A DNA stretch of 59,023 nt, the filler included, from Asterionella formosa (Eukaryota): assembly GCA_002256025.1 (NCBI GenBank). It is 9 parts of 9 records of this genome, joined end to end, with 100 filler letters (N's around TTAATTAATTAA, not from the genome) between each part and the next. Parts side by side here need not be neighbours in the genome. Positions count along the whole stretch, not along the records: positions 26,298 to 32,765 come from NKIB01012695.1; 8 more parts are not named here. One strand, 5' to 3'. The notes below the pieces were generated by a model that did not search any database, was not told the DNA's origin, and saw nothing but the letters and a program-made list of their open reading frames with translations. Each line of letters begins with the position of its first letter. The stretch's first letter is position 1. Below are positions 9,917-41,550 of this stretch, in pieces. The translations under genes and the position numbers were made by a program.

Positions 9917-10369
9917 GTAGAAAAGACCGATTTTGTCGAGTTTTTGGACAACGATAGCTAAACGTCGGCTGGGTCTGAAGGCGATTTAGATACATAGGTA
10001 ACTTTGAAATAGCATCAGTACATAACTTCTGGCGAGAAACTGCAGAAAGGAACTTCGGTTTTTTACGATACCAAATAAACAGATTTCCCCCAAATTTCCG
10101 AGTAGTTTTAGCCTAGTAAAAAAACCGAAGTTCCTTTCCTGCAGTTTCTGACCAGATCCTATATACTGACGAGCGATATATAGAGAGGACCTACACCCCT
10201 ACTTTGTCTGAAGACTATATGTAAGCATATGGAAAGGGTTTGTATTGGTGAAAGCTCCGTTGAGCGTTATACATATTCAATTTATATGTGAAAAGTACCT
10301 GTTTGATTAGTCTGACTCAATACTATTTTTTTAAACCTACCTCGGGCTAGGGGTTCAAATGCAGCAACC
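9917..10369 (+). mobile_element. 3' terminal module of the transposon, with a long internal inverted repeat, ending CC|TTAA
   Basis: Collinear with 20917-21366; IR arms ~10028-10066 and ~10116-10156; TTAA at 10370-10373. Confidence 0.85.
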
Positions 10370-13950: not shown

Positions 13951-14138
13951 TGAAGTATCTAACCAGAAGTAGTAGTATTTGTTGAATATATGATCTTATT
14001 TGTTAATCGTTATGGGTAACTCGTTCTCTAAGTCGACACCAAAGTATACAATGAGGGTTAGTCGAGTTCTCTCATTATTGAGTTCTGATATATATGATAA
14101 AACACTAACCCTACTGTATTGATGCGCAAGATCGCTCA
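13951..14138 (-). repeat. Gypsy 3' LTR (188 bp)
   Basis: Direct repeat of 18251-18447; purine tract GGGAGAG adjacent on minus strand. Confidence 0.92.
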
Positions 14139-14159
14139 CTCTCCCACACCACCAAGGGA

Positions 14160-15880: not shown

Positions 15881-18250
15881 GGACCAGTTCTATTTAAATC
15901 CTTTTTTAATTTTGAAGACCAAAATTTGAGATCTGTTGGATTTTATTGATATCCCAATGAGTCAGTTTCTTCAACAGACCATTTCATTTGGAATTGTGCT
16001 TGATGACTTGTGGTTAAATACATTTATTTCAGCCATATCAGCAGCTTTCCGTATCTGTATAGTTTGCAGCTTTAATGTTTCATGTGTTAACATAATTCCT
16101 GATAGGTGTATCAAAATAGAACAATCCATTATGTAAATGTTCTGTATCATTATAGGAATCAATGACATGCAGAAAAAACTGATGTATCCACTACACAGGA
16201 CATAGTATTTTGTACAAAATCCATCATAAATTAACCAGCTGGACAAATGAGTAAACTTGCAGAATGTACTAAGACCAGGTACTTCTGGTGCAGAATACTA
16301 GCTGACGGATTAAATTTTGGGAGCATCATGTTTTATGAAAGAGTACTGGCAAAGGAAGAAAACATCATACCTGCTATTCATGGTATATATCAAGTATATA
16401 TGCTCGATGGGCAACGAAATGTCCTGAAGTACAATTCATTCATAAGTTAAAGATCAGGACCCACTACGATCAAATAACATTCATCTTATGTCATGTATAT
16501 ACATAGCAGCCACCAATCCTTGGGTTGCTAATGAAATGGGAATGAAATGAAATGAAGCTTATGCATTCTTACGCAAAGAAAGAATGAGACCGGAATCAGG
16601 CCTTCAGATGCGCATATGGAATGATATATTGAATCTACCTTTGCATTTTAAAACATCCAGCGTTAGAATAGCTGCGTTATCCAACCTGCAATTATCCTGT
16701 AAATAACAAATGATATCCAGGTAATGATTGACGTAAGACATATTCAATGTGCTGTCTCTCATAAATATACTATATATATATTATTAAAATCATAGCATTG
16801 CTGTTGTCGCACATACTTCTGTTAAGGCGATCTGTTCAGCATTTTGCTGGTTTTTATTAGGCACATAGGCCATTAGCTGACCAACAGGAGGGTTCATGAC
16901 CACTAAAATTTCCTAGGCAGATTCATAAAAGTCGGCAGGTATGGCCCTCGGCACAGTATCCTAACCAGACATCGCTCATCATAGGGTTAACCCATGGAAT
17001 TCCCATGGATTTGCTTGTATAAAACATGCACGGAAAACATGAATAGCTAGTACTAGGGTTAGCTTTGACAGTATGATAATTCGCTCCACGTGAAATTTCC
17101 ACGCCAGTGGAACATGAACAGGAACAGGGTTTGTAGTGCTAGTAATGTTAACTCGATGGACCTTCTGTTTGACCATTGTTTCACAATCACATGCGTGGCC
17201 GGCTGCATTAAAATGCATGTGCCCTGCCATTGTTGGCAGTTAGTATTATAAAATTATCATGTACAAATTTTCGCGTGAAATAGTTGTTTTCTTGATGCAT
17301 CACACAACTGCATTCAGGAATGCGAAGACGATCTTCTGTTAAAATTGAGACTAGTTACGCTTGTTTTCTTGATGCATCATGGGATTTTCTTCAACTTCAA
17401 CTATTTATATGACGATTTTTGTGGTAGAAAATTGATACCAGGCACGCGCGTTCTCTCGACATAACAAGACTGCCTTCAGCGATGTGAAGTCGATTTCGGC
17501 TTATGGCAGAACTCATGCTTGACGAGGATGTGCTCGAGTTGATCGTTGAATGATTGTTGACTCTCGAAGTAAGTCAAAACCAAGCGAATTAATTATTTTG
17601 TGTTCTTTTCATTGTTCCATTCAAACACTTGCTGCCACGCATTGTCAATAAAGCAAAATGACAATCAACCTCAAATCTTCCTTGGCAGAGACCTCTTGAT
17701 CTTCTGGATGAGGTATCATGAGTTTCAGGAACTTCTTTAAGGTCTTGAGACAGGCAGCGAAGGCGATCATAAACATGTTGAAATGTTTTATTGAGTATTA
17801 TCATGGCATTCACTGATGCTGACTCTCAGAGATACCATGAAGAAGGTAATCTTCCAGCCACATCACCATGACTTTGTTGTTGAGACTATTATGAGACTGA
17901 GCATCTGGGTGTATTGCAACGCTCATCCAGTCAGACAAGACGATATCTGTGAGTCATCTTTTGTAGCAGTAGGTGAACAAGCAAGGAATCTGCTGGACTA
18001 AAGGTATATGAGTTAGCAATATCACAGGATTTACTGAAATCAATCAATAAGCTTCCACTGAGTGTTCACTGATCATATCTTTTTTGAAAGACTCCAACAA
18101 GCATTGACCTGGTAGCGATACACAAAGAGGTCTGAATCTTGGCTGATGTTTAGTGTGTTGTTATCCTTCATCAATGGGACCACTGGAACTTGAGAGGACA
18201 TTATATCAACATGATTATTAATTCTAATTGGAATCGTTTTGAATTCAAAG

Positions 18251-18447
18251 TGAAGTATCTAACTAGAAGTAGTAGTATTTGTTGAATATATGAGCTTATT
18301 TGTTAATCCTTGTGTGTAACTCATTCTCTAAGTCGACACCAAAGTATACAATAAGGGTTAGTTGTGTTCTCTCATTACTGAGTTCTGATTTATATGATAT
18401 AACACTTACCCTATATACGTCTCTGCATTGATGCGCAAGATCGCTCA
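18251..18447 (-). repeat. Gypsy 5' LTR (197 bp)
   Basis: Direct repeat of 13951-14138; followed on the element strand by CTTTGAATTCAAA. Confidence 0.92.
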
Positions 18448-18457
18448 CCAGGTGGTA

Positions 18458-19234
18458 CTCCCTCTGTCTAGTAACAGTTGCATCGATAATTGAAATTTAT
18501 CCGGGACCATTTTGACTCATACGATTTTCTCCGGCTCAATTGCCCTATTGGGCGGCTTGCTCTAAGCTACAGAATCATGTATAGAAAGACTAAAATTGGG
18601 AACTACATTTGAAAAAAACGTTTTTGGGATTTTTCGATTTTCACTTGTAGCTATCTCGAGCAAAATGCAGATGCATGAGGACCCATTTTTCTTCGAACCA
18701 TCTATTCTCAACATACGTGCAAAGTACGATATAACAGTAGAACAACTGCAACTTGCGTTCAATTATGGAATGTGCAACCCCGAAAGTGGCGATGGTGGGA
18801 AGGAAGAAAACGACGGTATGCTCGTTTTGAGGATTGTAACCGTTGAACGTCAGGTGGCACGGTCCATGTAGGTGCAACAACCGTAGAAAGTATAACAAAC
18901 GACAATTTTTCTATTCATGTTATAATTATGATAGTGGCTTGTTGTGTTTGGTTTCCCGCAAATATTTGACTGGCCAGCCGATGTGAAACAGCAGTTGGCG
19001 ATATGTAGATGTATGCAATGAATATGCGTATGTTAAATTTGTTTCGATTAATTTATTTACATGCTAAAAATTTAATTACAGAAACCAAGTATATGTTCAC
19101 GTCTATGTAACTCATTAAAAACGCATTTTTTCGAGTAAGCCGACCCTCACGTAGAACTTTGGTATGTTGGCCACAGAATCCTTCATATGTGGTGGTGCCG
19201 GCGAATCGATGCAACTGTTACTAGACACAGGGAG
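18458..19234. mobile_element. Tc1/mariner-type (Stowaway-like) non-autonomous element, 777 bp
   Basis: 30-bp TIRs CTCCCTCTGTCTAGTAACAGTTGCATCGAT / ATCGATGCAACTGTTACTAGACACAGGGAG with 1 mismatch; TA on both sides; no transposase inside. Confidence 0.9.
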
Positions 19235-19628
19235 TACCAGGTACCAGGATCCTGGAAGCTCCGGTAAAACACGTTTTAACCTTATGAAAGGACTAAGCTA
19301 ATTATCTCGACTTCCGGGCCTTCTTGGGACTTACGATAGAACCTGGAACTTTAAATACATATGTATTAATAGGCATCAGCCAACAATATAAGCTGCCCCC
19401 AGCAACTGTGATAAATACGGGAACAAGATTGCTCGGGTTCTCCGGGGAATTGGTGACTTACCCCTTACCGCACCAACTGATGAATCAGATATCCATAGTA
19501 CTTGATGGGTACTGGTACAACGTGGTTGTACCATCTACGTAGATACATACTAACCTAGTAAAAATTACTGCTGGAACGGCCTCAAGTCACAACTTGTTGG
19601 ACCTACCATTACAGCAGGGCACTAACAG

Positions 19629-20266: not shown

Positions 20267-20640
20267 GTAGCCCTTGCTGAAGCTAGTATATAATTATTTA
20301 GCTTAGATGTTGCGATTTGTCTCTATTTATAAAATGCTACAGTGTAGTTCTTGTGAGTGGCTGGCTGGAGAATCAGCTAATTTCTCCACGAAAAATGAGA
20401 ATGGTGCTTTGCTATAGGGTACATATATCTAACACGTCATAGATAATACAATCATAAAAAATAACTGTAATAAGACTAATATTGACAACGAAAATTGAAG
20501 TCGCCTATGGCGCATTTCTTCATGTACTTTAGATGGCCAATGCACAATTCAAACGACGAAGTTACGACAAGATTTAACACTTTCACAGTATACAACACTC
20601 TACACTACGGCAATCATCTGTAGGCCGAACCAAATTTCGT
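20267..20640 (+). repeat. Partial copy of the 7198-8060 dispersed repeat
   Basis: Shared blocks TAATTATTTAGCT, CTACAGTGTAGTT, ACGAAAA.TGAGAA, ACATATATC, GCC.ATGGC. Confidence 0.75.
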
Positions 20641-20908: not shown

Positions 20909-21366
20909 AGGAGTTCGTAGAAAAGGCCAATTTTGTCGAATTTTTGGACAACGATAGCTCAACGTTGGCTGGGTCTGAAGCCGATTTAGATACATAGGTA
21001 ACCTTAAAATAGCATCAATATATAACTTCTGGCGAGAAACTGCAGAAAGGAACTTCGGTTGTTTTTACTTCGCCAAATAAAGTGATTTCCCCCGAAATTT
21101 CTAGTCTTTATAGAATAGTTTAAAAACCGAAGTTCCTTTCTGCAGTTTCTCGCCAGATCCTATATCCTGACGATATATAGCGTTGCCCTATACCCCTACT
21201 TTGGTCAATGACTCTATCTAAGCATATGGAAAGGGTGTCTTTTGGTGAAAGCTCCGTTTAGCGATACACATTTATGCTTTAGTCGTACGAAGTGTGTGTT
21301 TGAGTTCTCTGACTCAATATTATATTTTTAACCCTACCTCTAAACTAGGGTTGAAATGCAGGAACC
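20909..21366 (+). mobile_element. Stand-alone 458-bp copy of the transposon terminal module (solo-LTDR-like or MITE-like) between TTAA sites
   Basis: TTAA|AGGAGTTC...GGAACC|TTAA; perfect 33-bp internal IR at 21028-21060 and 21125-21157; collinear with 9917-10369. Confidence 0.85.
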
Positions 21367-22103
21367 TTAAGCTAAATTCCCGCCCCCCTCTGGTTTCTCG
21401 ATTGCCGGACCCTCCTGGTACCAGGTACCGAGAATCGTACTCGGTAGGCTCTGTAGAGCAGAGCACAAGGCCTAGCTACCGGTAAGTGCCGACAAGCACA
21501 CTCTGTAGTACAAGCTGACAATTAGTCGTGTGCAACATCTCAACCCTGCAAGGAGCAAAGCGGTTCTTGCGATGGATGAAGAAGGACAAGCCAAGAGGCA
21601 GGAGGGTGTTACATACACAAAGTCTTCTCAGATGCCACAGTCATCTCATTGTCTTAAGTACTAGACAAGGTGAGTAGTAGCATATCATTGTTGGATAGAA
21701 GAAAGCCAATTGAATGAAAATCCATTTGATTGAAGAGTAGGAAGGAAGGAAAGTACAAATAATATAGATTCGTTAAAATGTATAATTTAAATACCATTGC
21801 ATGTATTAATTGCTCTTTTCACTTGTTGTTGTTGTTGTTGCTTGTTGTTGCTTCAGCAACGACGACGTCGACAGCTTAAACAATCACAAGGAACATGGAA
21901 AAATTCTACATAGCTATTGAAGTGTTGACTAGACATATCATAGGTACTACACATGTTGAGGATTTCAATAGCAGATAATAATTTGTGGAATATGCAAATT
22001 ATACTGTGGTTTGAGACGTTCCTATTTGTTGAGTGAACAGCGTGGGACATGAAACATCCAGTGCTCCATACATCTAAATGTACGCAACAAAGTTCGAGCT
22101 GCA

Positions 22104-23536: not shown

Positions 23537-24956
23537 TTTGAATTTCCCTTGTTGTAGAAAGACGAAGAATTATCGATAGTAGTCAACGATAGACTGTGCT
23601 ACTCTGATAAAGCAAATAGAATACAATGATCTACAAATAATTGTGATGGAATGAAAGGGAATCATGCATCTAGGCAACTACTGGTACCCAGTACCCTTTA
23701 CCCTGGGGTACCATTTCTAAAAATAAAACAACTACCTACCGGTACATACAGTTATCAGCCAGCATGGCTGATCAAAACTTTATGATGAGGTTGTGATGAT
23801 GGGCGGAGGACGAGACAAGAAAAACGAAGCTGGCTGTGGGTGCAATTCCCGCTCCAGCTATCGTCTTGCCATTCGGGTCCTTGTTAAGTAATTTTTGGGC
23901 TTTAAGTAATTTCATAAGTAATTTTTATTTAGGGGCAATATGGGGCACATGGAATTTTTCGGCAATAAAATTGCCGATTTTAGCAAGACAGCCAGAATAA
24001 CAGTAATATGCATAGGGATGATACAACAAGCGTAAAACACACGAGAATGATTGTAACATGCAACATCAATGAAAATTGAACATGATGTTTGGAGCAACCA
24101 AAGTATGAAATGCGATGTAATAAGTAGCATCAAATTAGAAATAGAAAAAATTGTTTTGGGTTAGAAATGAAGTGAAAAATAGGAGTTTCAATGGAAACAT
24201 ATGCATTGTGACATTGTACTACTTACACAGGCAACATTGACTTTCCATTACCACACAATCGAAGACCGAAAGAAGAAGAAAAAAAGCAGAAACCAATTTA
24301 GACCTGCAACGTTATGTAGTGTAGATGATCTGGTTGCTGCAACCATTCACATCGCTGTAGCAGCCTAACACCAGTAGCAGTCTTTCCGCCACAATCATTC
24401 CTCCCACCCAACAACCCTGATCATTCCACTCCATTCTGAGCTAGCGTGATTGCCAGGCTACTCCAGCACTATCGACGCCCTCTAGCTGAGTATTTTTACG
24501 TAGCCTGTGATACAAACTCGTAGTAGAAAGGTAGCAAAGCGCGTTAGTACAAGAAAAGCATTGCTTGGCGGGAATATTGACATCATTGTCAATGACTATA
24601 CAAATCAACAAATAAGATCAACAACGGCACAATACAACTTCAAAGAGTAGGCATTGATACATGCATCGGCCCTTTGAAGATATTTACAATCAAATCAAAA
24701 CGACAGTGCGGAATGACAAAGAACGATAGAAGCGATCAAAACGGACCATGGAAGCAGCAATCAAATAGGAAACTCAACAATCGTATCTATGATCACATTC
24801 AGTATTTGACTGGTGTACTCACCGGTCTGCTCTAACAAGCGTAACACGCAGCAGATGATGGGCACATAAGGAAGTCGAAAGTTCCTGTTGCAAGCCTGAA
24901 TTGAGCAACAACAGGAAGGATAGAGTGAGAATTATAATTGTGAGGACGAAATTGGG

Positions 24957-26197
24957 TGTTGAGATTGCGTCCCGAAGCACTCTATGCTTTCTTGTATCCT
25001 GTAAGGACACGTCAGGGACCAAAAAGGCTGTAGATATGAACAACGATGTCTCCGTAATCGATTGTAATCATTCCTAAGAGTTTTAATAGAATTATGGGTT
25101 TTTACTGTTGACGTTGATTGTTTTCGAATTCTGAGTCTTCTCTGGTACCATATTCTTTCTTGATTCATTCGATTCAATATGTAGTAGGTAATTTATACCG
25201 GGATTTTCTTTCCTAAAATATTTTCTCCAACACACTCCTGCTGGACACGGATGCTCACTTTGAATTCATAATTTGCTGACGAAAATGAATAAATTTCGTT
25301 CCAACCAGTGGTTTCATCATGTAGTCTGCTAACATTGCATCCGTTGGACAGTACTACTTAATCTGTACTTCCTTTCTTTCAATAAGATCAGTAATATAAA
25401 AATATTTGATGTTGAAATGTCGTGTGCGTTTTCCTGAACTTGCTTTTCCATTTGCTTCTAGCTTCATTGCGCTAGTGTTGTCACAGTAAATGACATTCGT
25501 AGTCACCTTGTGTCCTTGCGCTTCAATAAATAATTTCGTCCACAACACCTTTGATACAATGTCATCGACACCAACCAATTCAGCTTCAGTCAAGCTTCTA
25601 GTGTTCACTTTCTGTTTTGTGGACATAGAACAAATAATTCCGTTTCCAAGTGACAATGTGGCTCCAGTGTGACTTTTAAAATCTTTGTGTACTGCAGACG
25701 CCGCATCAACGTACCATTTAATGCTCTGAGTGTCATCAGCACTCATAGATGCAACCTCATTCTGAGTTGCTTTCAAGAAATTTATGATCTTGACTAATTT
25801 TGCCCAATCGCCTTCATTTGGTTTTGTAGTTTGGGTTGCCAGAAATGCAATTCCTGGTTGAATGTCCTGTCTTCCTCACTTACATAGGAACATTCCTTTC
25901 ATGCCATATAATGCCTTGATCATCCTAACATATAGGACCTTGCTGTTTCCTTCATAAACAACATATTTTTCATAAGTCTCGGGGCTGAGTTCTGTCAACA
26001 TATTGACAAGCAAACCTCTAATCTTCATCATGATTTGTTCCCCTTTTTCTTTCTCATCGATATCCACGTGCACAAATGCATTGGGTATATCTGCAGTCAT
26101 AACATCGCGATTTTGCTTTGCATCAATTGTTGCTGTTATCATAACAGATTCAGTCATGGTAGTTGGACTAGCTGCTTCATCTCTTTCCATGAATTCA
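24957..26197 (-). mobile_element. 3' part of a Ty1/Copia element: internally deleted RT, RNase H, PPT and 3' LTR (24957-25232)
   Basis: ASPT..ESV..TA.IDA...RDV.TADIPNAF, KALYGM joined directly to KGMFLCK, WYVDA..AVH.D.KSHTG, KQKVNTRS.TEAELVG, KRTRHFNIKYFYITD; PPT GCAGGAGTG then TGTTGGAGA...TCTCAACA. Confidence 0.92.
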
Positions 26198-26297
26198 NNN
26201 NNNNNNNNNNNNNNNNNNNNNNNNNNNNNNNNNNNNNNNNNTTAATTAATTAANNNNNNNNNNNNNNNNNNNNNNNNNNNNNNNNNNNNNNNNNNNN
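26198..26297. other. Artificial contig linker
   Basis: Same linker. Confidence 0.98.
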
Positions 26298-27185
26298 TAA
26301 TTTTCTAAAATGTTGCTCTACGCAAGTCTCGTCTAGTATGTGGGATATTGAAACACATGAATAAATTTCGAAGTTTTGTATTTTCAGCGAAGATCAAATA
26401 TTATGTGTGGGTGAAAAAGTTTACAAAAACGTATATAATACATAAAATTCATTTGTTTTCCACTATCAGGTTTGCTTGACCCAAATGGACCGGAGCGCTC
26501 TTATTGTGGACACATGATAAAATTTTAAGGATGTTCAATTGATAGAGAATTGAACCGAATGGTCATCGTTCAGATTTGACCCGAATTTCAGGATAGTGTT
26601 GGCCTTTTCAACGGAAATACTGGTAGTTCATTTCAACGGCTTGACACGGTGAAAACGCTTACCGGTACATGCGTTGTGAGACTTTGCTCCTTGGCATAAA
26701 TATACTTAACATGAACCACGTCCGAGGACAAAACAGCCCGAAAGAGAAATAATCGAGGATGGACAGATAACGCATGGAAGAATTTTGTGAGGATGTCCCC
26801 CCTAAGTGGTTGTACCACAAGCTTTGGAGGGGATTGTCGCTCATTAACATGTTTTCACGAAAATAAACTGTAAGCAATCAAGAAGTAATAGCTGGCTACT
26901 TATGGAAAAGTTCCAAAATTATATTACCTGGTACCGGTACTACAGTAGTGACTTATGTACCGAAAGTTTGCTTTGTGACTAGCACTGCCGGTAATTAATA
27001 AATACCTGGAGTATCCTCTACCCTGCTTGTGGAGGGTCCGATAAAAAAACGTATTTTACCTTTGAAAAGATTCAGCTAAAGCCAATATCTCAATTACCGG
27101 ACCTTCCCTGGTACCAGCACCAGCTACCAGGTACCAGGGTAAGTGACCACATCATTCCCCCGCCCCGAATAATGATTTTATCCAA

Positions 27186-27228
27186 ACGATGTACGGTACT
27201 GGTACCTGGTACCAGTACCGTACATCGT
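27186..27228. repeat. Perfect 43-bp palindrome (21-bp arms, 1-nt centre) built on GGTACC-T-GGTACC
   Basis: ACGATGTACGGTACTGGTACC t GGTACCAGTACCGTACATCGT. Confidence 0.95.
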
Positions 27229-27654
27229 CTTACAAGCAACACCGACTTGCGAAGGAAAAACTAAAGTAATACATATACCGGTACACATAAAAAGAATGAG
27301 CCAAATATTTAAGAGCAAATCATTGCTTCAGCGATCGACGAGAAAATCTGAAAAATGTCAATAGTTTATAAATATTTTGTCTAGAATTAATTTTTTAATC
27401 CCGAATCAGCTGTTACGCGATACCTGTAAGGTAGTCCGGTTTGATTTGGAGGCTTTGGTTTAATCTCGCTTATCATGAAGACAAGTACAAGGTGTACCAG
27501 CACTGGCAATTTAGATACAATTGTACGGTGATTCGTGCGACATGGACAAAGTTTTGGATTCGAGAGTAGGACCACCCAAGGCGATCCGACAACAAGCGGA
27601 GACAGGATGCTATGCCATCCTTGAACCACAAGGCCAACAAACCCTCTTGTCGAA

Positions 27655-27870
27655 TGCATACCGGTAGTCGAGCTGGTACCCCTGGTAGCACTTGGTGCAT
27701 GGTACCAGGTACTGGTACCTGGTACCATGTACTGATACAAGGGGGCCTGGTACCAGGTACCACGTACCAGGGTGGTAAACGGTACTCTGAAAGGTGGTCC
27801 AGGCCTCCTCGTTTTGACGAAACTCCGATTTTGCGTGGGATTAAAATGTTGGTACCTGGTACCACCAGGG
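27655..27870. repeat. Dense GGTACC/CCWGG palindrome cluster
   Basis: About eight GGTACC sites, including the fold-back CATGGTACCAGGTAC-tg-GTACCTGGTACCATG (27698-27729). Confidence 0.9.
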
Positions 27871-29528
27871 TATATCAGTCGTATAACCTGTACCTTTCGT
27901 GCACAATGAATTTTGACCTAGACAATGGCCTGACATCACTGCGTTCAAGGTGACTCGAACAGTGGGCATCACCTGTGGAAGATTTTTCAATTTGTTTGCA
28001 TCACATTTCCTGGAAATTCCTCATTCTTACGCAGCCAGGACTAGGCCTATCTAGCACTACCTAGCAGAGAAATATTAGAACAGGCACAGTATGGTGGAAA
28101 TATGTATGACCAATACATAAGTATGTTGAACAACCCATGCATGGATTTATGCCGGGCAGTCGACAGCTACCTGGCTGGTACCTGGTACCTTGTACCAGAC
28201 AGCAGTAAAACCAACAGGGTATGAAATTAATTATATAGCACACAAGAGTAGAATATTATTTGGTAAATAGTTTTTCTGTGTCTGGCAGCATATGGTATTG
28301 TCGTGATTGTGTCAACAGGTGTTTTAAATTTGGCTTACTAGTTTATCAGACCATACCACTCTCATGTACACCCGCTCTTTGGAACATAATACCCCTGCGA
28401 AGGGCTCACCCCCTACAGTGGCGCCTGTTGACAGAACAAATCGTCGGCCATTGAACGCCGCACAAGTAAAGTTGACCGTTGAACTTTTTTGCTTGCATAC
28501 AGTTGCTCTTGGCCATTGAATTTTTAGTGTGAATCGACCTGCAAATGCACTCCCCACCACTTTCCAAACAGAGGTTCTGACTGATTCTGGCCCCTTACAC
28601 ACACACCTTGCTGGTTATGAGTTTTAAACAGACACTCACGACGCCCATAAGAGTTTAAAACAGGGAACTCATTACACCCATAAGAGTCTAACAAGGGGTA
28701 GCAATCACTCATCCTTCTCCTTGACCTTCTCCCTCTCATTCAACACCTGGCCTTACCATACACCCCATCTCCTGGCTGCATCCTCCTTTCACTGTTTGCC
28801 TCCACATCTACTAGCCACCTTCCTGTGTTGCCACACCCCAGCATGTCTTACCATCTACCAAGCATTGTCAACCCTGGCTTGCCGATTCTCTCAAATGGGG
28901 GGGGGGAATCCTGCTGGATCTAGTCTGCACAGATGCTCACAGCACCAACAGAAGTACCATAACATGGGGGTTTTATCTATTATTTTGCTCTCCCAACAAC
29001 CAAGGACTTCTTTTGCCAGCATGTACAAGAACCCTACACTATGATGAGAGGGAGATTGTGTTCTTGGATATCTTTCTTCTTTTCATCAGCCACTTGTCAC
29101 TGGAACACCGCAGATAGGGGAGATATGTCCCATGGCATCAGAATTGCAGAAAGGGTCAGCTTATTGCATCACAGATATCAGGCAAATAGCAATAAAGAAA
29201 TCTTCTTTAGCTATCATTCTGGATGAGATTTGTTGTCCTGAACAAATAGCAAGGGATTCATATTGTAAAGTCCATAGTGATTTCAGCCATCAAAGAGAGG
29301 GACCTGAAAGCTGGCTTAATTAGTTGACTATCAGAACAAATTTAAAATTAAAATAGTTGCATCTCAATACAAAAAAGCTACATGATGTTCCAATAGGAAA
29401 CATAGGAGAACATAAATCTTTCCCATGACAGCAAGTCCTCCATGTGTGTATATTAAAAATGAGGTGTCCAGAGTCTGACATCGCCCATTTTCACCTTGTG
29501 TGTTACCAGGAAACACATTTAATGAGAA

Positions 29529-31235
29529 TTAGACATCTGCGCTATTTTTCGCAATGGCTTTGGTCAGCAAGACTTGTACCAAACCCATCCCGGAGACTAC
29601 TGTATATGACGAGATACACGCAATAAACACTGGGGCAGTTAAGGGCCCTCCCAGTACAAAAATAAAGCTGGACAGGATGGTAAATGTAAAAATTCCTGGT
29701 AAGATGGATGTGGCAACAGCGACAAGACAACAAGGGACTGTCACAAGGGCTGGGATTTCTGGAATGATCAAATTGATTGCCGATCCAACACAGGCTCCAG
29801 AAAAAATTAGTGGAAAGAAAGGACCCCCAATAAATCCGAATCCAATACAGACACTCATTGATAACAGCTTGAGCAGCCCAGATACAATGATTGTTTCTTT
29901 CCCAAGCTCTTTTCCATTTGTAATTATCAAACTCATCTGTTCAGAGCCATCCGAAAGATTCAGAGGCGCCGCGACAACCAACAATCCATGGACCACTCCA
30001 CCAATCATTGGAGTCAATAGTTTACCCAGGACATTTGGACCAAGTCCCATTCTCTCCCCCAGATCATTCAACTTTGTGCTGACCAAGGCACCCACCACCT
30101 TACTAACCGCAAGGAATAGAAATCCGACAAAGCCAACCAGACCACAAAAACACCCCATTCCTGCGGCGTACACTAATAAGCGAGTTTGAACGATGGGTAG
30201 CACATCATATGCGGCTGCCGGAAGCACAGTGATATCCAGAAGAGTGCGATCTTCAAAGCCGGTGAAGAGTGCATAAGAAAATGTCGCAGAGATACCCGTA
30301 CGCGCCAGAGTCTCGACTAAGGAGAATCGACCTCCGTGTCCCCAGTGACCACCCAACTCAAAAAGCAGGAGCGGTGACAGCAACTGATTGGGGAAAATGG
30401 CGCCAAAGGCGGCTGCCATGCCATCTAGGACGCACATGGATTTGTCTCGCGAAAAGTCGGGCAAAAGATATGACAGGAATCCATGCTTTTCTCTTTCGTC
30501 GCTCGTTTCTCCGTTTCGCTCATCGTCGTCCGCGAGGATTGGTCCTGACTGGGATGGTCCACCCCTCCGCCATCGACACCCCATTGTGCATCCTAGTGCT
30601 GTCCCCATGGCACCAAGTGCTACTTCGGGCCCCACAGATGCACCCATTCCAATCGAAATAGCAGAAGCAATCATCATCCCCAAGGGCAACAACCTGTCCT
30701 CAATTGTAAGGTTCGATAATTCTTCCAAAAAACCCGGAATGTTTTCTTTGAATTCGTGGTTCGGCAAAAGCTTGGTCCAAACGACTTTCAAGAGACCTAC
30801 GGCCAAGCCCGCACCAGCCAACAGTCCCACCCACCACCATTCACCTCGTCCTATTTTGAGTGGGTTTAAAGTTTGCGAATCGTTTACATTATCATCAGTC
30901 GATGATGGTGTATAATCAATCGCCTCTTGGTAGCTCCCCTGGAGAAACGTCGCGTTCGCCAAGGCAGTATAACAATTGAAAAAAGCCAATGCTACTGCAC
31001 CCATGATCATCCCTTGTAGACTTGATGAAAATACGAGGGCCTGCCAATAGAACCAGCCTTGCGCATAGGCGGGTCCCATGGCGTTTAGAGTTATTTGCGC
31101 TTGTTCGACTTTTTCGGCGCGTTGGGTGGATGCGGCGGCAGCTTTGACAGAGGCGGATCGGGCAGGGATACCCCAAACAGCGTTACCGCTATCATTCTCC
31201 TCCTCATGATTACTATCATTATCGAAATCCCGCAT
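29529..31235 (-). CDS. CLC-family chloride channel/transporter, prokaryote-like, no CBS domains, ~568 aa, intronless
   Basis: Many hydrophobic helices; GASVGPEVA (GxEGP-equivalent), GMAAAFGAIF, GFIGGPFFPLIFSG. Start placed at MRDFDND because the upstream part of the ORF is GGTACC-repeat translation. Confidence 0.88.
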   Translation of the reverse strand: MRDFDNDSNHEEENDSGNAVWGIPARSASVKAAAASTQRAEKVEQAQITLNAMGPAYAQGWFYWQALVFSSSLQGMIMGAVALAFFNCYTALANATFLQGSYQEAIDYTPSSTDDNVNDSQTLNPLKIGRGEWWWVGLLAGAGLAVGLLKVVWTKLLPNHEFKENIPGFLEELSNLTIEDRLLPLGMMIASAISIGMGASVGPEVALGAMGTALGCTMGCRWRRGGPSQSGPILADDDERNGETSDEREKHGFLSYLLPDFSRDKSMCVLDGMAAAFGAIFPNQLLSPLLLFELGGHWGHGGRFSLVETLARTGISATFSYALFTGFEDRTLLDITVLPAAAYDVLPIVQTRLLVYAAGMGCFCGLVGFVGFLFLAVSKVVGALVSTKLNDLGERMGLGPNVLGKLLTPMIGGVVHGLLVVAAPLNLSDGSEQMSLIITNGKELGKETIIVSGLLKLLSMSVCIGFGFIGGPFFPLIFSGACVGSAINLIIPEIPALVTVPCCLVAVATSILPGIFTFTILSSFIFVLGGPLTAPVFIACISSYTVVSGMGLVQVLLTKAIAKNSADV

Positions 31236-31359
31236 ATTGTTGGGGGGAGGGGACAGGTGAGGGCGCTTGGGATAGGGCGGGCGGCTTGTGTTTGCGGCGT
31301 TTGTCAATTCTATAAAGCGACCTGCTTTCACAGCGCGGTCGATTTCTGTTCTGCAGGAG

Positions 31360-31955
31360 TACCTTGTACTTGGTACAGGTACATAGTGCCTGGTACCTGG
31401 TACCTGGTACCGATCTACCAGTAGCATCGTTTTCAATCAGAATCGCTCGCAACCTGATGGTACCAGGGGTACTTGATACCAGGTACCATCAGGTGCCTTG
31501 TAACGCAGTACGGTAGGCTCGCTCGAGCATGTAGCGGAGGCACTTTTCGGCTAATACCACCGACGTACCGTAGTACGGTATGATATTCATACTAAGATAC
31601 CGGTATGCTTCTGGTCATAAAATGTGCACTACTGTAAACATATATACCGGTATAGATATGATACATGTTAAAGAATATAATACAGCCATTCCTGTACCAG
31701 GTACCTGTAGTCTAGTACCAGGTACGCAGAATGGAAACTGGTATACCATTCATGCCGGTATGATGATGTACGGAGTACCTGGTATCAGGTACCTGGTACT
31801 ATTTGATAGGTAGGAGCACCTCTCACCAGTACTACCCGGTAGTAACGGTACTGGTACTCCGAATGCTGGTTCCATGGCACCAGTGGTATGTTATGTGAAC
31901 AGTACAGTACCTGGTACTGGTAGAGACAAACCGGAGTACAGGACCATATGTACCG
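31360..31955. promoter_or_regulatory. GGTACC/CCWGG-rich region upstream of the CLC gene
   Basis: CCTGGTACCTGGTACCTGGTACC at ~31389; fold-back ACCTGATGGTACC...GGTACCATCAGGT at 31452-31494. Regulatory role is inferred only from position. Confidence 0.45.
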
Positions 31956-32629
31956 GTAATAAAAATGGACACCTCTGAGCTCCGGGTTATTCATATGGTA
32001 CTAAACGAAGCAACGAATATCATCATTTCAGCCAGAGCGACAAAGAGCGAAAGCAAATGAAAGGAAAACGATTCGCCATTATCTATAGAAAGTGGTGAGG
32101 TGAAGCATGCGGACCCTGGAGGATCGTTTTTTGATGTCGTTGCCCCCTGCAGATCCTCTATACTGATATGAGGACATTCTGTGAAAGTTGAGCTGAAGTT
32201 GATTCGAAATCCATTCGTTTTCCTGTCCATTGCGTCGGCCACGAGCATCATGTCACTTTTGTTTCCAGCTTTCTCGGTTCTACATAGGAACTGGTATTCT
32301 TTTTTGCGTTCAACGTGCGCCTGCCGACACGAAGACTCAATTCCCACTGATTGTACTGCTTAAATACCCGGCATGCAGTATGACGAACAGAGCGCCATAC
32401 CGGTTTCTATGATAAAATAACTGCCTTCCATCCATAATTTCAGCTGTGCTACTGGTACTCACTTCCAAGTTGTTGTTTCTCTTGCAGAACGAACATTGCA
32501 CATCCTCTTTATTCCTTGGCTTGTTCATTGCAGCGCTTGAGCTTGAGCTTGAGCTTGAACTGCCAGCACTCGACTCGTTGAAAGCCCAGTCTGCCATATT
32601 TGTATCCAACTGCAGAATCTCTCCTGAGA

Positions 32630-32765
32630 ATGAATTCGTCGGACGAGACCGACGCCACAGCTTCCGACTCGGATGACGACGACCATCAGTTGGCCACAGG
32701 GCAGGCTTCTGCTCCGATGGAAACGGATACATCAGTCGATGGTGCCAAGGAAGAAACTAACACTG
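32630..32765 (+). CDS. Possible 5' end of an acidic low-complexity protein, truncated by the contig end
   Basis: MNSSDETDATASDSDDDDHQ..., open to the linker, in a GC- and CpG-richer stretch; no family recognised. Confidence 0.35.
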
Positions 32766-32865
32766 NNNNNNNNNNNNNNNNNNNNNNNNNNNNNNNNNNN
32801 NNNNNNNNNTTAATTAATTAANNNNNNNNNNNNNNNNNNNNNNNNNNNNNNNNNNNNNNNNNNNN
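32766..32865. other. Artificial contig linker
   Basis: Same linker. Confidence 0.98.
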
Positions 32866-33108
32866 TAACACTCGTACGTAGACGAAATTTCGAAAAGTCA
32901 AATGAATTATTTGAAACATCAACTAATTCAGTCTCGCGTTCAAAATTCATTGTGAAAACTTCACATGAAACAGTTAAAACTTCACATGAAACCGTTAAAA
33001 GTAATCTTTTTTACGTGAAGAGTGGCATTAATGCATGTGAAGTACCACATAATTAACACTCATACGTAGACGAAATTTCGAAAAGTGGCGTATTTCGCGT
33101 CTTAGATG
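32866..33108 (+). repeat. 3'-end-like segment related to the 7198-8060 repeat, with internal duplications
   Basis: TAACACTC.TACGTAGACGAAATTTCGAAAAGT twice; AAAACTTCACATGAAAC twice; ends AAAAGTGGCGTATTTCGCGTCTTAGATG like 8036-8062. Confidence 0.55.
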
Positions 33109-35399
33109 TCGTGTGTCAATCTCGCGTCCATGCATCCTTGTATAGAATAGCAGCGAGTATCATTAACAGTGATTATTACAGTTGAGACGGGTTAAAGGAA
33201 CTTTAAGAATGAAGTAATTATGGACTACCGAAATTATCGGTAGATAGAACATATACAGGTATTGCTCTCCTTTTCCTTGCAGGTAGAATTTTCTTGAAAA
33301 TATCACTGTTAACCCTAACTTCGTTATTATGATTGGTAGAATATACTACCAAAACGAGATAACAAATTCTACCAAAAATTCTACATGGTAGAATTTTGAC
33401 CTGTTACATACCTCATACTGACCACGTAAATATTTGCCAATACCTTGGAGGTATTTTCTGTCCTCAGTAGAAGACTACCAAGGCCTACGAGAAAATACTA
33501 CCTTGGTAGAATTTCGGGACTATTATACTGGTAGACACCCAACAGGTTTTTCAGCTACTGGTATTTCAATTTCGGCACCAGCATTTGTAGTAATGAGGAG
33601 TTCCTTGGTGTGCCTCTACAAACTGGATGAACAAATGAAATGGCTGTATCTAGTACCAGGATACCTTTTGTCAGTGCACGTGCCTGGCACGGTGGTGCGT
33701 ACAAAAATAACAAGGTGGTACACCAGTGTCGGGGCAATTAAGTGATCAAGTGATTACTGTAGGCACCTGGTACTCGGAGTACACCTGGTAATCGGTACCA
33801 CGTCCCTGGTACGGAGTATGTAACAGGTACCGGTACTCTGGTACTTCGGAGCTTCGTAGTACTTGAGGAAGTCTCGAGAACTGGGACAGCTGGTACGGCG
33901 GAATATGTACAAGGTACCCTGGTACCTTGTACATTTTAAAAATTAAGTATGTAGTGTAGCCTATGTACTTTACGGAAGCTTGGTATGCTTACTGTACGTG
34001 GATGGTGCTGTGGATGAGACGATCAGCGATTCGGTTGTGCAATGAAGTAGATGGCACTACGTAGGTATGTGACTCGAAAATGCAAAAACACAAGAGATAC
34101 CTTGCTCAATATATTTGTCCGCCCCGCCCTAATTGGTATCAACGAACGTGGATGGTCTATCCAGATACCAAGGATGGGATTACAGTCACCGTGAAATGAT
34201 TGATTTTTGTATCACAATTTCGCTGTAGCAATAACAGTTTGACACTGAAGCACGAGACGACTCTTTGCAGTGACGGAAGAGCGATTTCGGCGATTGAGAC
34301 GGGAAAGTGAACATCACATCCGTCTTGTCTCGACCCACCAGCAGAAACGAAAAGGAGGTATCATTCATGATACAACTCCTGCTGATGCTGCAGTAAGGAG
34401 AAAAGAAGGAGAAAAAGTACGCCGCAGTCTGTCATGTTCATCGTTGTCGAGAACTGACACTGGAACCCCACATCTCCGACTCTTTGCTCGTTTGTCTCAT
34501 TGGCTTGTGGATGTTCCTGAAGAAGAGCCACCACCTGTGCCAATTCGCCACTACTGGTTCAAGCGGAAGGGTCAAGCTCAACTATTATGGCTTTATCTAC
34601 CCCCAATGCTTTCTTTACTCCCAATTCAAGTCAGTGAGGTTAAGATAGAGGGCAAATTTATCTCCCATCCTTCGATATGTCTCTCCGAATATGGAGATGA
34701 CAGAAATAATGATACCAATCAGTCCGACGGGTTCCTTACTTACTTTTGCTGCTCTCATTCCAGACATATGAGAGCTTTATATTGATTGGTCGAAAAATGG
34801 GAGAAATGGGTCTCCATTGACATGCTCCTTCATGGACTCTATCAATGATCACCTAGAATTCATTAGGTTCCAACAATTATATGAAGCAAATTAAAAAGGT
34901 CTTGCCTCCCAAAATTGCTTGAAACCATGAATCTCCCACATGCTTCTTCTAGAATGGAAGAAACTAGGTCTGAAAGGATGATTTGGATTTCAATTTCTTT
35001 CGTGTTTTGGATGTCATGACATTTCTGATGATAAAATGGGAACACTCACCCACATGTGTAAATTCAAAATTATTACTATTATGTTCCCAAAATCAATAAA
35101 TATTGTGATGGGAGAAAACTGGATCATGAAGTAACCATGGAATTTCTCCTCCCATAAGAAATGCTTTCAAAATGCAGAAAGGAAACAAAAAACAATTACT
35201 TACATTTAACTTCAAACTCGTTCTTCACCCATATGATGTTACCAACTTTGTCCAAAACAGGAACCAGGTTCTTTTCCTTATGGTCCTTTTCAGAAATTTT
35301 ATCACGGGATGGTCCAACAATTGGAGTTAGCCTCTTCCAATCCAACTCAATAACAGACTTGCTTGAAAGAATTTTATCAAGCTCTTTTGTAAGGGGATA

Positions 35400-37159
35400 T
35401 CATATCATAACATTGGCTAATTTCTCAATTGATTCAGTTGAACAATAAAATTCCAGCTAAAATTTGACCAGCAGGTGCTGCAACTTTTAGAAGAAACAAA
35501 GCACATCTGATTGCAGGTGCAACATCTGTCACCCATTTCCTGGTAACTTGCATAGTAAAACAGGCTTCTTTTTCATCAACACCTGAATGCTGACAAACAA
35601 AGAATATCTGAACTTCAGTTTTTATCCAATGTTTTGGCTTGGGGCCCCTTCTTCATAAAGTGGAACAATATAGACAATTTTGGGACACTTTGCCTCTACT
35701 CCAGCAGTAAGATTAGCAAGGCCCTTTGTAACTTGTGACTGTAGATGAGACATCTTCTCCAGAAATTCTTTTTGGTTTTGCAAGAGTTTGGACCATTTCT
35801 CATTTTCATCTTGTTTCCTCACATGAAGAACATACAGATTTCTGGACAAGATCTGGCTCTTGAACATTCCTTATTTGAAAAAGACTGGTCACAACCTTTG
35901 ATTGGGCACTGAATGGTCTCATCACCAAGATGCGTAATGACATGATCCTCAAAGCATTGTTGGCATGTGGAATGATCTTTGCACATGGAAACAAAAGTAG
36001 AAACTTTGCTACACACATGACGTTGTTTATTACTTTTATTCAAGCTCAATGTTCCCATTTTTCCACCACAGGATTCTATGGGACCTCCACCAACATTATG
36101 ATATGTTTGACAAACAAGTTCACCCAGTTTCTCAACCAATTCACTAGTTGTTGGCCTATTTCCAAACCGGTACTGAATGCAAGAAATGGCTAATGAGCAC
36201 ACAGAAGACAGACTTCCATCTTCCCATTCATCTGCAAGAGGATCAACATCTTTCGCCAATTCTGGAATTGCCAATTTCAATGCCTCTGCTGGATTTCCAT
36301 CAAAATTTTCTGGGAAGTAGCGTTTAAAGAAATCTCCTTTCTGCCCATTTTGAATGCAGCCTGTCACAAGCTCAATCATGAAAATGCCAAACAAGTAAAC
36401 ATAATAGCATGCCTTAAATGTCTTTTTCTCATGAGAATACCTTGTACATATGTAGCCAGGTGTCCTAAAGACTCCACCAAGTGTTGTGTTCTGAACTGAA
36501 AAAAGATTTGCAATTGAGTCATCCACAGGCACGAACTTGGCCAGGCCACAATCAATCAGTTTGGCAGTATAGTCTCGTCTAAGGCAGATATTAGCCGACT
36601 TGATGTCACAATGAAACAGAATAAAGTTGTCACTTATTTCAGTATCACTTTTCTCTGTATGAAGGAAGTGGATGGCACGAATAATGTGGAACATGATTCG
36701 AAGTTGGATCTCACTTGAGAGGCTTTCTCTGCTTTCTTCACTTGCATAAAATTTATCAAGCGAACCCCTGGATGCATACTCATACAACAGGTATTGAGAA
36801 GGCGAATCAGAGGATATTTGATAGCCATACAAAGATACAATATGGGGGTGTCAGAACCTCTTTAATGCCTGAAACAAGAGAAGAGAAGAATGAGAAACAT
36901 AAAGTCTTGTGAAGACATGATGCAATATCTGATACCACACATGAACTCACCTGCAATTCGATTTTAAAACTTTTGCTAAATTCCTTCACCTTATCTTCCT
37001 TGACAGTTTGTTTACATCATTTAGTAAATCATCACCAATTGAATTACTATAGAGATGAAATGTACTCAAGACAGTATTGACTTTGAGACCCTCTGCAATG
37101 GCCATGGCTCTGTCAACACCAATTGAATTACTCAAGAGAACAATTGTAGTCAAGACAGT
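35400..37159 (-). pseudogene. LRR + IRAK/Pelle-like kinase + Cys/His zinc finger + coiled-coil pseudogene
   Basis: RI-type LRR (SNSIGVDRAMAIAEGLKVNTVLSTFHLYSNSIG); intron 36950-36869 gives ELQ|ALKRF*HPHIVSLYGY; LLYEYASRGSLD, HCDIKSANI, IDCGLAK, TPGY; C..H..C..C...CP...C; in-frame stop and frameshift near 35870; 5' end cut by a transposon. Confidence 0.82.
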
Positions 37160-37508
37160 GGGCGCGCTCTGATAATAAAAAATTATTATATCATGTGTAT
37201 TATAACACAAATCGTTGTACCCATATCCCCAAAATTTGTGTTTGTGTTGACCAAATTCGGTAAACCGTTTACCAAATTTGGTCAACACAAACACAAATTT
37301 TTTACGGTTATAAATAACAGTGCATTATATAAAAAGATGTTTAGACATGAATGAATAAATAGAATTTCCCGGAATATTTCAAGACTTGCTTGCTCATACT
37401 CAAAATGGCTTGCTCTTGCCAAAATAGGTATGCATATACATATGCATATCGTTACATATCAATCAACCTCCTCAATAAATCGATCGTCATCGCTTTTCGA
37501 TTTCGGCC

Positions 37509-38688
37509 ATGTCTTCATCTTCTTCTGGTCAAAGGAGAGCAGCCAGGGAGGGCTTCCCTTCCTCTCCAAGGCTGCTTGAACGTCGCCGTCACCAGCAACA
37601 AGAACAACAACAGACTCAACCAGAAGAAGAGGAGGAGGACGACGACGAGAATGAAGATGACACTGGTGCTGATAAATTTGCCAGTGACGATGAGGACAGT
37701 AGGATAGGTGTCCCAGGTGTTTCTCAGATTGGTGTTTCTGGGGTTACTCATTCCCCATCAAGAACGGCAACTGCCAGGCGAGCACCAACGTTTCCAAGAG
37801 CTCGCCGAAGCATGCAGAGTTGGGGACAACAGTTCAGGATCAATGACATTCTCTCATTTCTGGAAGCCATTTCTACTCACCTGCCAATTGGGTCCCATGA
37901 ATGGGAAGTTGTTGCATCACAGCACAACGAGAATTTCCCAGACAAAGAATGGACAGGACCTTCACTTCGCCGAAAGTTTTTCACAACTGCACAAAGTTAA
38001 GAAACCAACTGGGGACCCAACATGCCCTTCTGAGGTGAGATATTCCAAACAAATTTTTCGAAGAATCGACCAACAAGCAGATTCAAGTGCTGAGATTGAA
38101 TCTACTGATCTTGGAATAGAGAGAGAGCCCAATGAGCCCAATGAGCCCAATATTGATGAGCCAAATGTTGATGATGATTTTATAGCGATTTCTGGGGAGA
38201 GTGAAGACAATGGTGGAGCAGCATCTGCCGCTTATGCTAATTTTTCTGGTTCAAGATTTCCTCGACCTATGGTATCCCCTCGATTTAGAGATAAGGCAGT
38301 GACAAACAATACTGGGCCTGTTGAGAAAGTGCTTTCTCTTCTATTGACACAGTTGCTTCACAAGGCTACTCGAACTGATACTGATAACCTGCAGCAGCAA
38401 CAACTGCAGCAACAGAACATGATGAACATGATGATGATGTCATTCATGGCATCATTGTTTAATCAGCATGGGGTATCTCAAATAACCACCTCCACTGACA
38501 GTGTCAATCCCACTCAGGCAATTATGAATTCAATTATTGCTTCAAACATGATTTCAATGCAGCAAACAATGCAAAGCCACAATCCAACCTCGACAGCAGA
38601 TACCAATGCACAACAAACTTTGTCTGCCTCAACTCAATGTCAAAAACCAAAAAACAACAGTGGTAGCAGTAGTAGTGATGATGAATAA
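37509..38688 (+). pseudogene. Harbinger accessory DNA-binding (Myb/SANT-like, DUF6818-like) ORF with a frameshift near 37980
   Basis: LPIGSHEWEVVASQHNENFP...SLRRKF then SQLHKVKKPTGDPTCPSEVRYSKQI, split over two frames at a T6 run; Q/M-rich tail. Confidence 0.75.
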
Positions 38689-41185: not shown

Positions 41186-41550
41186 GCTATTGATCAATCA
41201 AACAACGTATCAATATATCAAAGCATTTGGTTATCATATTAGTTTTGATAACTAATATATATGACTTCTATCTATGCGTAACCTGACGTGTGTAAGGAAA
41301 TAATCTGACAAACAAATTTGATTGACCACACTGACACAGTCATTGATATATCAAAATTATCATCAACATAACAAAACATTTGATCAATACATCAACAATT
41401 TTGGTTAACCGATTAGATTTGGTAACTAATATATACAAGTTCTTATATATGCATAACCTAACGTGTGGATGCTACTAACCTAACGTACAAATTTGATTGA
41501 TCATGCAGACACGGCCGTTGATTTTTCAAAAATATCATCAACATGTCAAA
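41186..41550. repeat. Diverged tandem duplication, unit ~175 bp
   Basis: TTTGGTTA..ATTAG.TTTG.TAACTAATATATA ... CAAATTTGATTGA ... TATCATCAACAT, at ~41226 and ~41400. Confidence 0.8.

Follow-up and report, generated by a model that had tools for sequence, protein, structure and literature searches.

Tandem GGTACC(A/T) arrays outside the coding DNA of Asterionella formosa, a candidate promoter-side signal

We describe clusters of the palindrome GGTACC, some of them chained into short arrays of a heptad unit GGTACC(A/T), in a 59,023-nt stretch of the Asterionella formosa assembly GCA_002256025.1 (hereafter the window, meaning the whole stretch that was analysed). The window is made of nine pieces of ~6.47 kb each with N spacers between them and a guanine-cytosine (GC) content of 38-45% per piece. 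Piece 5 (26,298 to 32,765, record NKIB01012695.1) holds the interval 26920-28200, in which an earlier note had flagged a cloud of GGTACC sites. The protein-coding content includes long, intron-poor reading frames for a bifunctional aminodeoxychorismate (PABA) synthase, a voltage-gated chloride channel (CLC), a DRG-type GTPase, an alpha/beta hydrolase and a protein kinase. The PABA synthase is 100% identical to one protein of a public-run assembly (829 residues), 67-71% identical to four metagenome proteins (P0002-P0005) and 41-47% identical to its counterparts in Seminavis, Thalassiosira, Fragilaria, Fistulifera and Nitzschia, and because of these identities we read the window, from its sequence, as nuclear DNA of a diatom that is distant from the named genomes sequenced.

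The individual arrays and clouds are as follows, with the strand named where the feature has one.

26930-26962: GGTACCGGTAC site overlapping a TACCGGTA palindrome, the first array of the flagged cloud
27110-27136: degenerate heptad array
27186-27228: 43-nt palindrome centred on GGTACC-T-GGTACC, with 21-nt arms 100% complementary around one central base
27659-27786: TACCGGTA, then the densest cluster (6 GGTACC), with TGGTACC-W-GGTACCA at 27713 and 27748
27851-27895: GGTACC-T-GGTACC array and a degenerate unit
31359-31488: arrays including (GGTACCT)x3, upstream of the CLC gene
31694-32002: loose GGTAC/GTACC cloud with one TACCGGTA (31951), in the spacer between the CLC gene and its upstream gene; further TACCGGTA sites lie in this spacer just outside the cloud, at 31598 and 31645
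6863-7186: two array groups, 6863-6902 and 7034-7186
33717-33927: cloud of 4 GGTACC sites, with a 31-nt palindrome at 33905-33935 (folding z -4.9)
45716-45733: six-base-period variant (CCGGTA)x3, made of spacer-free GGTACC units
21417-21484, minus strand: TACCGGTAGCTAG, a spacer of ~40 nt and GGTACC-W-GGTACC, with no recognised gene behind

The GGTACC feature is real and statistically solid. Exact sites number 56 in the window, against 6.13 expected from 100 dinucleotide-preserving shuffles (standard deviation 2.31, largest value 13, none of the 100 reaching 56), which agrees with the manual estimate of the earlier note, about 55 against 7-8. Sites occur on all nine pieces, as had also been claimed, with counts of 3, 8, 2, 5, 22, 4, 7, 2 and 3 in pieces 1-9 and hence at least 2 in each, and the flagged interval of 1.3 kb accounts for 15 of the 56. 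Collapsing the sites into clusters more than 100 bp apart leaves 25, where ~6 single sites would be expected. GGTACC ranks first among the 64 palindromic hexamers; its single-mismatch variants stand at 0.8-0.9 fold when the central TA is altered and at 1.5-3.0 fold when an outer G/C is altered. The comparison with a Markov background that the earlier note called for gives observed/expected ratios of 6.6, 9.0, 4.6, 2.5 and 1.3 at orders 0-4. The excess is weaker at orders 3-4 because those models are trained on the 5-mers GGTAC and GTACC, which are themselves ~3.8-fold enriched through the arrays, and the high-order drop therefore leaves the finding standing.

The motif excess is wholly non-coding. 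The homology-supported coding set (11,498 bp) contains a single GGTACC site, or 0.09 per kb, which is about the chance rate, and the remaining 46,821 bp contain the other 55, or 1.17 per kb; the companion motifs described below are absent from that set (TACCGGTA 0/21, TACC-W-GGTA 0/30). This bears out the claim that the sites lie mainly outside coding sequence, and it weighs on the proposal, made in the same note, that they are a eukaryotic analogue of the cyanobacterial highly iterated palindrome HIP1. A HIP1-like process, in which the palindrome is created and kept up across the genome by a DNA methyltransferase, or by biased mismatch repair, at GGTACC, GTAC or CCWGG, would account for its strong over-representation, and methyltransferases known from bacteria and algal viruses do recognise GGTACC and GTAC. 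A repair bias would, however, be expected within genes too, whereas the sites spare coding DNA and form clusters and short tandem arrays rather than single sites. The suggested link to Dcm fares no better, as 53 of the 130 CCWGG sites are in contact with a GTAC core and the remainder, 77 sites, agrees with an expectation of 73.9, and CCWGG is therefore a by-product of the arrays. The HIP1 analogy is thus weak, and we regard a process of this kind as very unlikely.

Of the 55 successive GGTACC-to-GGTACC distances, 11 are exactly 7 bp, so the chaining with a 7-bp period that had been reported is upheld, together with its overlap of CCWGG. The flanks of the sites follow the consensus CC(T>A)GGTACC(A>T)GG, and the repeated unit is GGTACC with a one-base A/T spacer or, less often, without a spacer. 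Perfect period-7 tandem loci of at least two copies number 14, and 11 of them carry the GGTACC(A/T) unit; Tandem Repeats Finder (TRF) also reports period-7 rows, and no tandem unit of period 6 or 8-10 occurs at more than two loci of the window. As 11 of the 14 loci share one unit, general slippage is no explanation by itself, and some process must seed or keep the GGTACC(A/T) unit at many loci. The earlier note had thought of telomerase-like addition at breaks, for which we see no support in arrays that are short, interstitial and palindromic. The diatom telomere repeat is TTAGGG, from which the unit differs. An exact TTAGGG doublet is absent from the window; two matches with one mismatch were the most that appeared, and they lie clear of the arrays.

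A second palindrome accompanies the first. The companion TACCGGTA is found 21 times against 0.24 expected, an excess of ~90-fold that none of 100 shuffles reaches, and 15 of the 21 stand no farther than 100 bp from a GGTACC, where random positions would give 2.1. The inverse junction TACC-W-GGTA is found 30 times against 0.2 expected, the 15-bp palindrome TGGTACC-W-GGTACCA occurs five times in the window, and the GTAC core is contained in every array unit. Several arrays are part of long palindromes whose symmetry extends beyond the motif, such as 27186-27228 and 33905-33935. When eight arrays were folded as single-stranded DNA, four folded far better than their shuffles (z -9.5, -4.9, -4.6 and -4.4), the best being the hairpin of 27186-27228 at -23.2 kcal/mol with none of 200 shuffles equal to it; the other four, which are all four gene-proximal arrays tested, gave z of -1.0 to -2.6 and folded no better than shuffles, the PABA synthase array standing at -2.6. 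Self-BLAST of the nine pieces shows that similarity between arrays spans 25-60 nt and ends at the array, with unrelated flanks.

Arrays are also linked to gene starts. We scored the five genes whose start codon is supported by homology or family, leaving out the kinase, whose 5' end is undefined. The DRG start is ATG 23536, which the Pfam GTPase domain follows and from which the N-terminus presumably reads like those of DRG proteins; the hydrolase start is ATG 42910, followed by a signal-peptide-like start; and the PABA synthase start, ATG 55731, fits the identical 829-residue protein. The CLC gene probably starts at ATG 31235, with the in-frame upstream ATG at 31427 as a possible alternative. 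The genes and upstream modules concerned are as follows.

23683-23746, minus strand: DRG GTPase upstream module, TACCGGTAGGTAG, then GGTACC 152 and 176 bp before ATG 23536
29529-31235, minus strand: CLC gene (Pfam Voltage_CLC 2e-21; poly(A) RNA contig 29359-31203), with GGTACC 162, 169 and 176 bp before the ATG if this is 31235
42749-42774, plus strand: hydrolase upstream module, TACCGGTA, then GGTACC 142 and 157 bp before ATG 42910
55900-55946, minus strand: PABA synthase upstream module, TACCGGTAGGTAG, then GGTACC 174, 189 and 196 bp before ATG 55731
4631-5749, plus strand: conserved gene for a 372-residue protein (2281 relatives, including one that is 91% identical and aligns collinearly from residue 1)

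Arrays precede the ATG by 142-196 bp in four of the five scored genes. For an oriented position drawn at random, the chance of a site 130-260 bp upstream is 6.9% (8.6% for non-coding upstream windows only) and that of a site within 300 bp is 13.1% (15.4% for non-coding upstream windows only), and the probability of four or more hits in five genes is 1.1e-4 to 2.5e-3 across those windows. DRG, hydrolase and PABA synthase, though not CLC, share a common layout, which reads in gene direction TACCGGTA, a spacer of 4-45 nt, GGTACC-W-GGTACC and AGTAG-like letters, with TACCGGTA on the gene-distal side of the array in all three. Two exact copies of the 13-mer TACCGGTAGGTAG exist in the window, one ahead of the DRG start and one, at a similar distance, ahead of the PABA synthase start; a copy with one mismatch stands next to a third array, behind which no gene is known. 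The link of arrays to gene starts is new here, as is the TACCGGTA companion; both were absent from the earlier note.

Contigs of the DNA runs X5 and X6 (two further studies) and of the RNA runs X7 and X8 were compared with piece 5 as independent data; contig evidence of this kind establishes presence and says nothing on copy number or RNA ends. An X5 contig (31292-31562) bridges the (GGTACCT)x3 array with 0 differences, an X6 contig (27491-28028) bridges the densest cluster and departs from the window at 27 letters and 19 gap letters, and an X7 RNA contig (27569-27902) bridges the same cluster. Public runs that contain parts of piece 5 come from 13 studies, labelled freshwater, lake or algae metagenomes. 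The motif is thus present in independent libraries, as the earlier note had wished to see confirmed, and an assembly or library artefact, which would make the arrays a product of the data handling, is refuted to the point where we give it practically no weight. X5 contributes 2321 contigs that match the 6.5-kb piece, with a summed depth of 25,000-38,000 in array bins against ~230-1,070 over the CLC gene, and at the array edges 10-21 contigs of X5 and X6 per edge continue into letters that agree only ~0.4-0.5, which therefore represent many loci with unrelated flanks.

Against the window, other runs have a 12-bp motif-like insertion behind 27658, one extra base at 27711 and two bases fewer at 31472, and among the compared rows there is no clean change of length by whole 7-bp units. 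These between-run differences in and beside arrays, together with the period-7 tandem structure, are what one would expect of a neutral slippage-prone simple repeat, a hairpin-forming heptad without function that expands easily, is tolerated in nucleosome-free spacers and would be the eukaryotic counterpart of bacterial intergenic heptamers. The array (GGTACCW)2GGTACC is found at more than 110 loci in prokaryotic genome contigs among the matches listed (L081-L190), from many phyla, with several loci in some metagenome-assembled genomes (at least 7 in one Acidimicrobiia bin and at least 5 in one Planctomycetota bin) and often abutting arrays of other heptamers; viral contigs gave 0 matches. Because (GGTACCW)3 recurs at so many prokaryotic loci, the GGTACCW heptad itself appears to be intrinsically expansion-prone, and the excerpted text of Rehm et al. 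2015 (PMC4692102) mentions a polymerase-slippage hypothesis for the over-represented bacterial heptamers. Slippage, however, lengthens repeats that already exist and leaves unexplained one unit at 11 of 14 period-7 loci, the ~90-fold excess of isolated, non-tandem TACCGGTA, and the consistent position and orientation before genes. As an account of the arrays we find it unlikely.

In poly(A) RNA contigs from other loci, arrays are embedded in other sequence that exceeds 100 nt on either side, and summed RNA depth is ~1200-1300 in array bins, 75 over the CLC gene and 0-2 in silent stretches; some arrays are therefore transcribed. This, and the four of eight arrays that fold far better than shuffles (z -4.4 to -9.5), would fit an RNA-level element, in which arrays in 5' untranslated regions form hairpins that tune translation or RNA stability. 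Part of the array-bin RNA signal, however, comes from an expressed repeat at 28079-28253, and the four arrays that fold no better than shuffles include gene-proximal ones (three at z -1.0 to -1.4, PABA synthase at -2.6). The RNA cover of 26600-27900 is at background level, with depth 2-12. RNA contigs of the CLC gene end at 31203 (X8) and 30955 (X7), short of the arrays, and because contigs break at repeats these ends are uninformative on the transcription start, as contigs in general cannot reveal transcript beginnings. We consider an RNA-level role to have little chance of being correct.

Two features link the arrays with mobile DNA.

28079-28330 (right limit approximate): high-copy dispersed repeat with an internal array at 28177-28197
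18458-19234: 777-bp non-autonomous element, flanked by a TA duplication (18456-18457, 19235-19236) and ending in 30-nt terminal inverted repeats (1 mismatch)

The dispersed repeat is covered by 28-68 X5 contigs per position at 28120-28162 and reaches a summed depth of up to ~207,000 against ~230-1,070 over the CLC gene, and in poly(A) RNA the stretch 28079-28253 is spanned by a 778-nt contig (X8, depth 250). Other copies diverge upstream of 28078 (loose-end agreement 0.89), and since they continue differently there the copy in the window is truncated at 28078. A second, moderately repeated stretch follows at 28890-29321. The 777-bp element, which lies outside recognised genes, is inserted in the central TA of a GGTACC that forms the first unit of a two-unit array. 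Its tip resembles what we take to be the Stowaway/mariner-type terminal consensus, and with its flanking letters it would read GT...AG, presumably like introner-type elements. This insertion shows that a TA-targeting element can hit arrays; it does not thereby indicate that such an element makes them.

A transposon-linked origin would have the arrays spread by mobile elements, left as their scars or chosen as their targets, with elements favouring open 5' gene ends and either insertion and excision at the central TA or passage within a small repeat element seeding the unit. The transcribed high-copy repeat with its internal array and the element sitting in the TA of a GGTACC both speak for it, as do the palindromes that extend past the motif, as abutting terminal repeats would, the 25-nt stretch with 'imperfect' units that is identical at two unrelated loci (6863-6887 and 27708-27732), the Mutator-like, Harbinger-type (DDE_Tnp_4) and Copia gene fragments in the window, and the 12-bp motif-like difference between strains at 27658. 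Set against these, similarity between arrays ends at the array, and contigs from elsewhere have unrelated letters on both sides. The self-BLAST revealed no common transposon body or defined copy ends shared by arrays, and a search through all 48 x 50 pairings of TA-flanked, CCWGG-type ends at separations of 60-4000 bp found no terminal repeat beyond the array, in keeping with the earlier statement that the sites lack terminal inverted repeats and target-site duplications and have unrelated flanks. The inserted 777-bp element has different termini and shows only that arrays can be hit, and random insertion fails to explain the equal distance and the two-part layout before unrelated genes. We therefore consider this origin unlikely, although it would be less surprising than a HIP1-like process or an RNA-level element.

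Two narrower ideas about array ends were rejected. The recurring GGTACTCC, present in 7 copies at array edges, is in its two clear cases a TA target joined to the tip of an inserted element, with which the remaining five have just four letters in common. Excision at TA that leaves CCWGG behind as a footprint would account for both the 7-bp period and the A/T centre; such a model requires an element with CCWGG ends and a 5-nt staggered cut, of which we found no evidence.

The position of the arrays, ~140-200 letters before most recognisable genes, points to a hitherto undescribed signal on the promoter side rather than to a methylation palindrome of the bacterial kind. We propose that the arrays are promoter-proximal clusters of predicted binding sites for a dimeric factor, with unit numbers that drift by slippage, a model that we prefer to the others while holding it tentatively and short of calling it probable. 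It is preferred because it accounts best for a single unit shared by many loci, for the sparing of genes, for two palindromes made of the same half-sites, and for a constant position and orientation ahead of unrelated housekeeping-type genes. Among the causes proposed by the earlier note, a sequence-specific DNA-binding protein fits this position best.

Several observations weigh against a promoter role. The association with gene starts is drawn from only five genes, within 58 kb, and the window of 130-260 bp was picked after seeing the data, so that 1-300 bp is the fairer test. The conserved gene at 4631-5749 has no GGTACC in the 600 bp before its ATG and only one GGTAC at 457 bp (a 10-bp GTAC-centred palindrome at about -180 was given no weight), and a DUF6818-like frame has no array. 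Were the CLC gene to start at ATG 31427, three units would fall inside the frame, and upstream of that ATG the closest sites would stand at 37 and 60 bp. Some 20 of the 25 clusters lack any homology-supported gene start at 320 bp or less, the flagged cloud at 26920-28200 contains no convincing reading frame, and one array lies inside the high-copy repeat 28079-28330.

Within the promoter model, an abundant dimer-binding factor would recognise GGTAC/GTACC half-sites and would mark or open promoters, and the number of units may drift through replication slippage and hairpin-templated copying, both favoured by a palindromic heptad. Such drift would lead to arrays of differing length, to long perfect palindromes and to differences between strains. 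Arrays without a gene, including those at 26920-28200, may be surplus copies or copies in decay, may serve as promoters of transcripts not yet annotated, or may have been carried along by repeats such as 28079-28330. A bolder and rather improbable version holds that nearly all promoters of this diatom lineage are marked by (GGTACCW)n, a palindromic heptad that expands by itself, in company with TACCGGTA; half-sites would be read by a dimeric factor that opens chromatin at a fixed distance before genes, and the arrays would be made and renewed by a mechanism dedicated to them, be it copying from a hairpin template or cleavage of the central TA by a nuclease or transposase. If true, a single mobile simple repeat would furnish the promoters of unrelated genes, as a eukaryotic counterpart of bacterial intergenic heptamer repeats.

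Promoter recognition in diatoms is little established, and a fixed distance of arrays from transcription starts across the genome, if true, would provide a testable promoter signal for a major algal group. The promoter model, if it holds, would also give a handle for finding the binding factor and a ready part for expression constructs, and the arrays would link two puzzles, the accumulation of heptamers in bacterial spacers and the spread of a short palindrome without a visible transposon. If the arrays are instead neutral slippage products or transposon scars, they are an unusual yet ordinary simple-repeat family.

The window contains other features as well. The protein of 4631-5749 has 123 relatives at E<=1e-30 in a library of 1.84 billion proteins, mostly matching the C-terminal part of longer proteins, and no Pfam family was found for it even at E<=1. 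No relatives were found for the frame 45170-45463 (minus strand). The frame 34249-34782 (plus strand, 178 residues) matches in parts ~12 short metagenome proteins at 71-98% identity over 22-45% of length, as would be expected of a repeated and probably mobile fragment. A scan of metagenomes by PABA-synthase alignment, with patterns that were too general, returned 80 loci at 26-45% identity, mostly on soil or sediment contigs, and no close diatom relative; Rfam matches in the window numbered 0. Upstream of the kinase frame a near-perfect palindrome of 71 nt (95.8%) at 37231-37301, unrelated to GGTACC, adjoins 47-nt direct repeats at 37029-37159. Three dispersed repeat families are shared between pieces (7221-7604, 20286-20590 and 47235-47641; 9917-10374 and 20917-21371; 13950-14139, 18226-18448 and 56039-56239), with 65-88% identity within families, and a tandem repeat at 41226-41558 has a unit of 175 bp in 1.9 copies with 77% matches. 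The CpG palindromes ACGCGT, CCCGGG and CCGCGG are found 0 times against 3.3, 3.1 and 1.9 expected in the window, and GCATGC and AGATCT are rarer than expected, at 0.43 and 0.35 of expectation.

The GTAC core is also bound by the SBP domain, a family that a review, in its abstract, calls plant-specific. The main text of a survey of Phytophthora transcription-factor binding (PMC11267843) contains no GTAC, GGTA, TACC or ACCGGT string, and an Eimeria cDNA paper (PMC3315734) offered nothing that bears on the arrays. In the open-access literature searched we found no description of such arrays in a diatom or other eukaryote, the motif strings otherwise occurring as cloning sites or in unrelated work.

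Among known systems, HIP1 copies are dispersed singly, in genes and spacers alike, whereas the diatom sites are tandem, are found in coding DNA in only 1 of 56 cases, and contain a CCWGG that is not enriched alone. The likeness to HIP1 (GCGATCGC, cyanobacteria; Elhai 2015, PMC4390886) lies in one short palindrome that is many-fold over-represented and contains restriction/methylation sites. Bacterial heptamers, such as Xanthomonas GGGAATC, Nostoc GGGGA(C/T)T and the cyanobacterial short tandemly repeated repetitive (STRR) sequences, are over-represented, intergenic, variable in length between relatives and unexplained according to the excerpts of Rehm et al. 2015, and they share with the diatom arrays a tandem unit of 7 bases, one dominant unit and an intergenic place near genes. 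They are, in the same excerpts, prokaryotic, G-rich, non-palindromic and nearer the 3' side of the neighbouring gene, whereas the diatom arrays are nuclear, palindromic and upstream of start codons. In form, the arrays are closest to these bacterial intergenic heptamer repeats. They also resemble repetitive extragenic palindromic (REP) sequences and bacterial interspersed mosaic elements (BIME), and the palindromic repeats that invade algal organelle genomes, in being hairpin-forming palindromes in spacers with unrelated flanks; unlike REP/BIME, with their hairpin of 20-40 nt, the diatom unit is 7 bp and has no fixed element length, boundary or associated transposase.

Promoter-proximal palindromes bound by general factors include the fly DNA replication-related element (DRE), bound by DREF/BEAF-32 at housekeeping promoters, the vertebrate TCTCGCGAGA, the apicomplexan TGCATGCA and the yeast Reb1/Abf1/Rap1 sites. 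The diatom arrays resemble DRE/Reb1-type elements as an enriched short palindrome that is non-coding, stands at a fixed short distance before unrelated housekeeping-type genes and is often present in multiple copies, and they depart from them in being chained head to tail at strict 7 bp, in having a second palindrome made from the same half-sites, and in occupying many gene-less places. By analogy, then, the arrays would in function be most like the promoter-side palindromes that general factors read, such as the fly DRE and the Reb1/Abf1/Rap1 sites of yeast.

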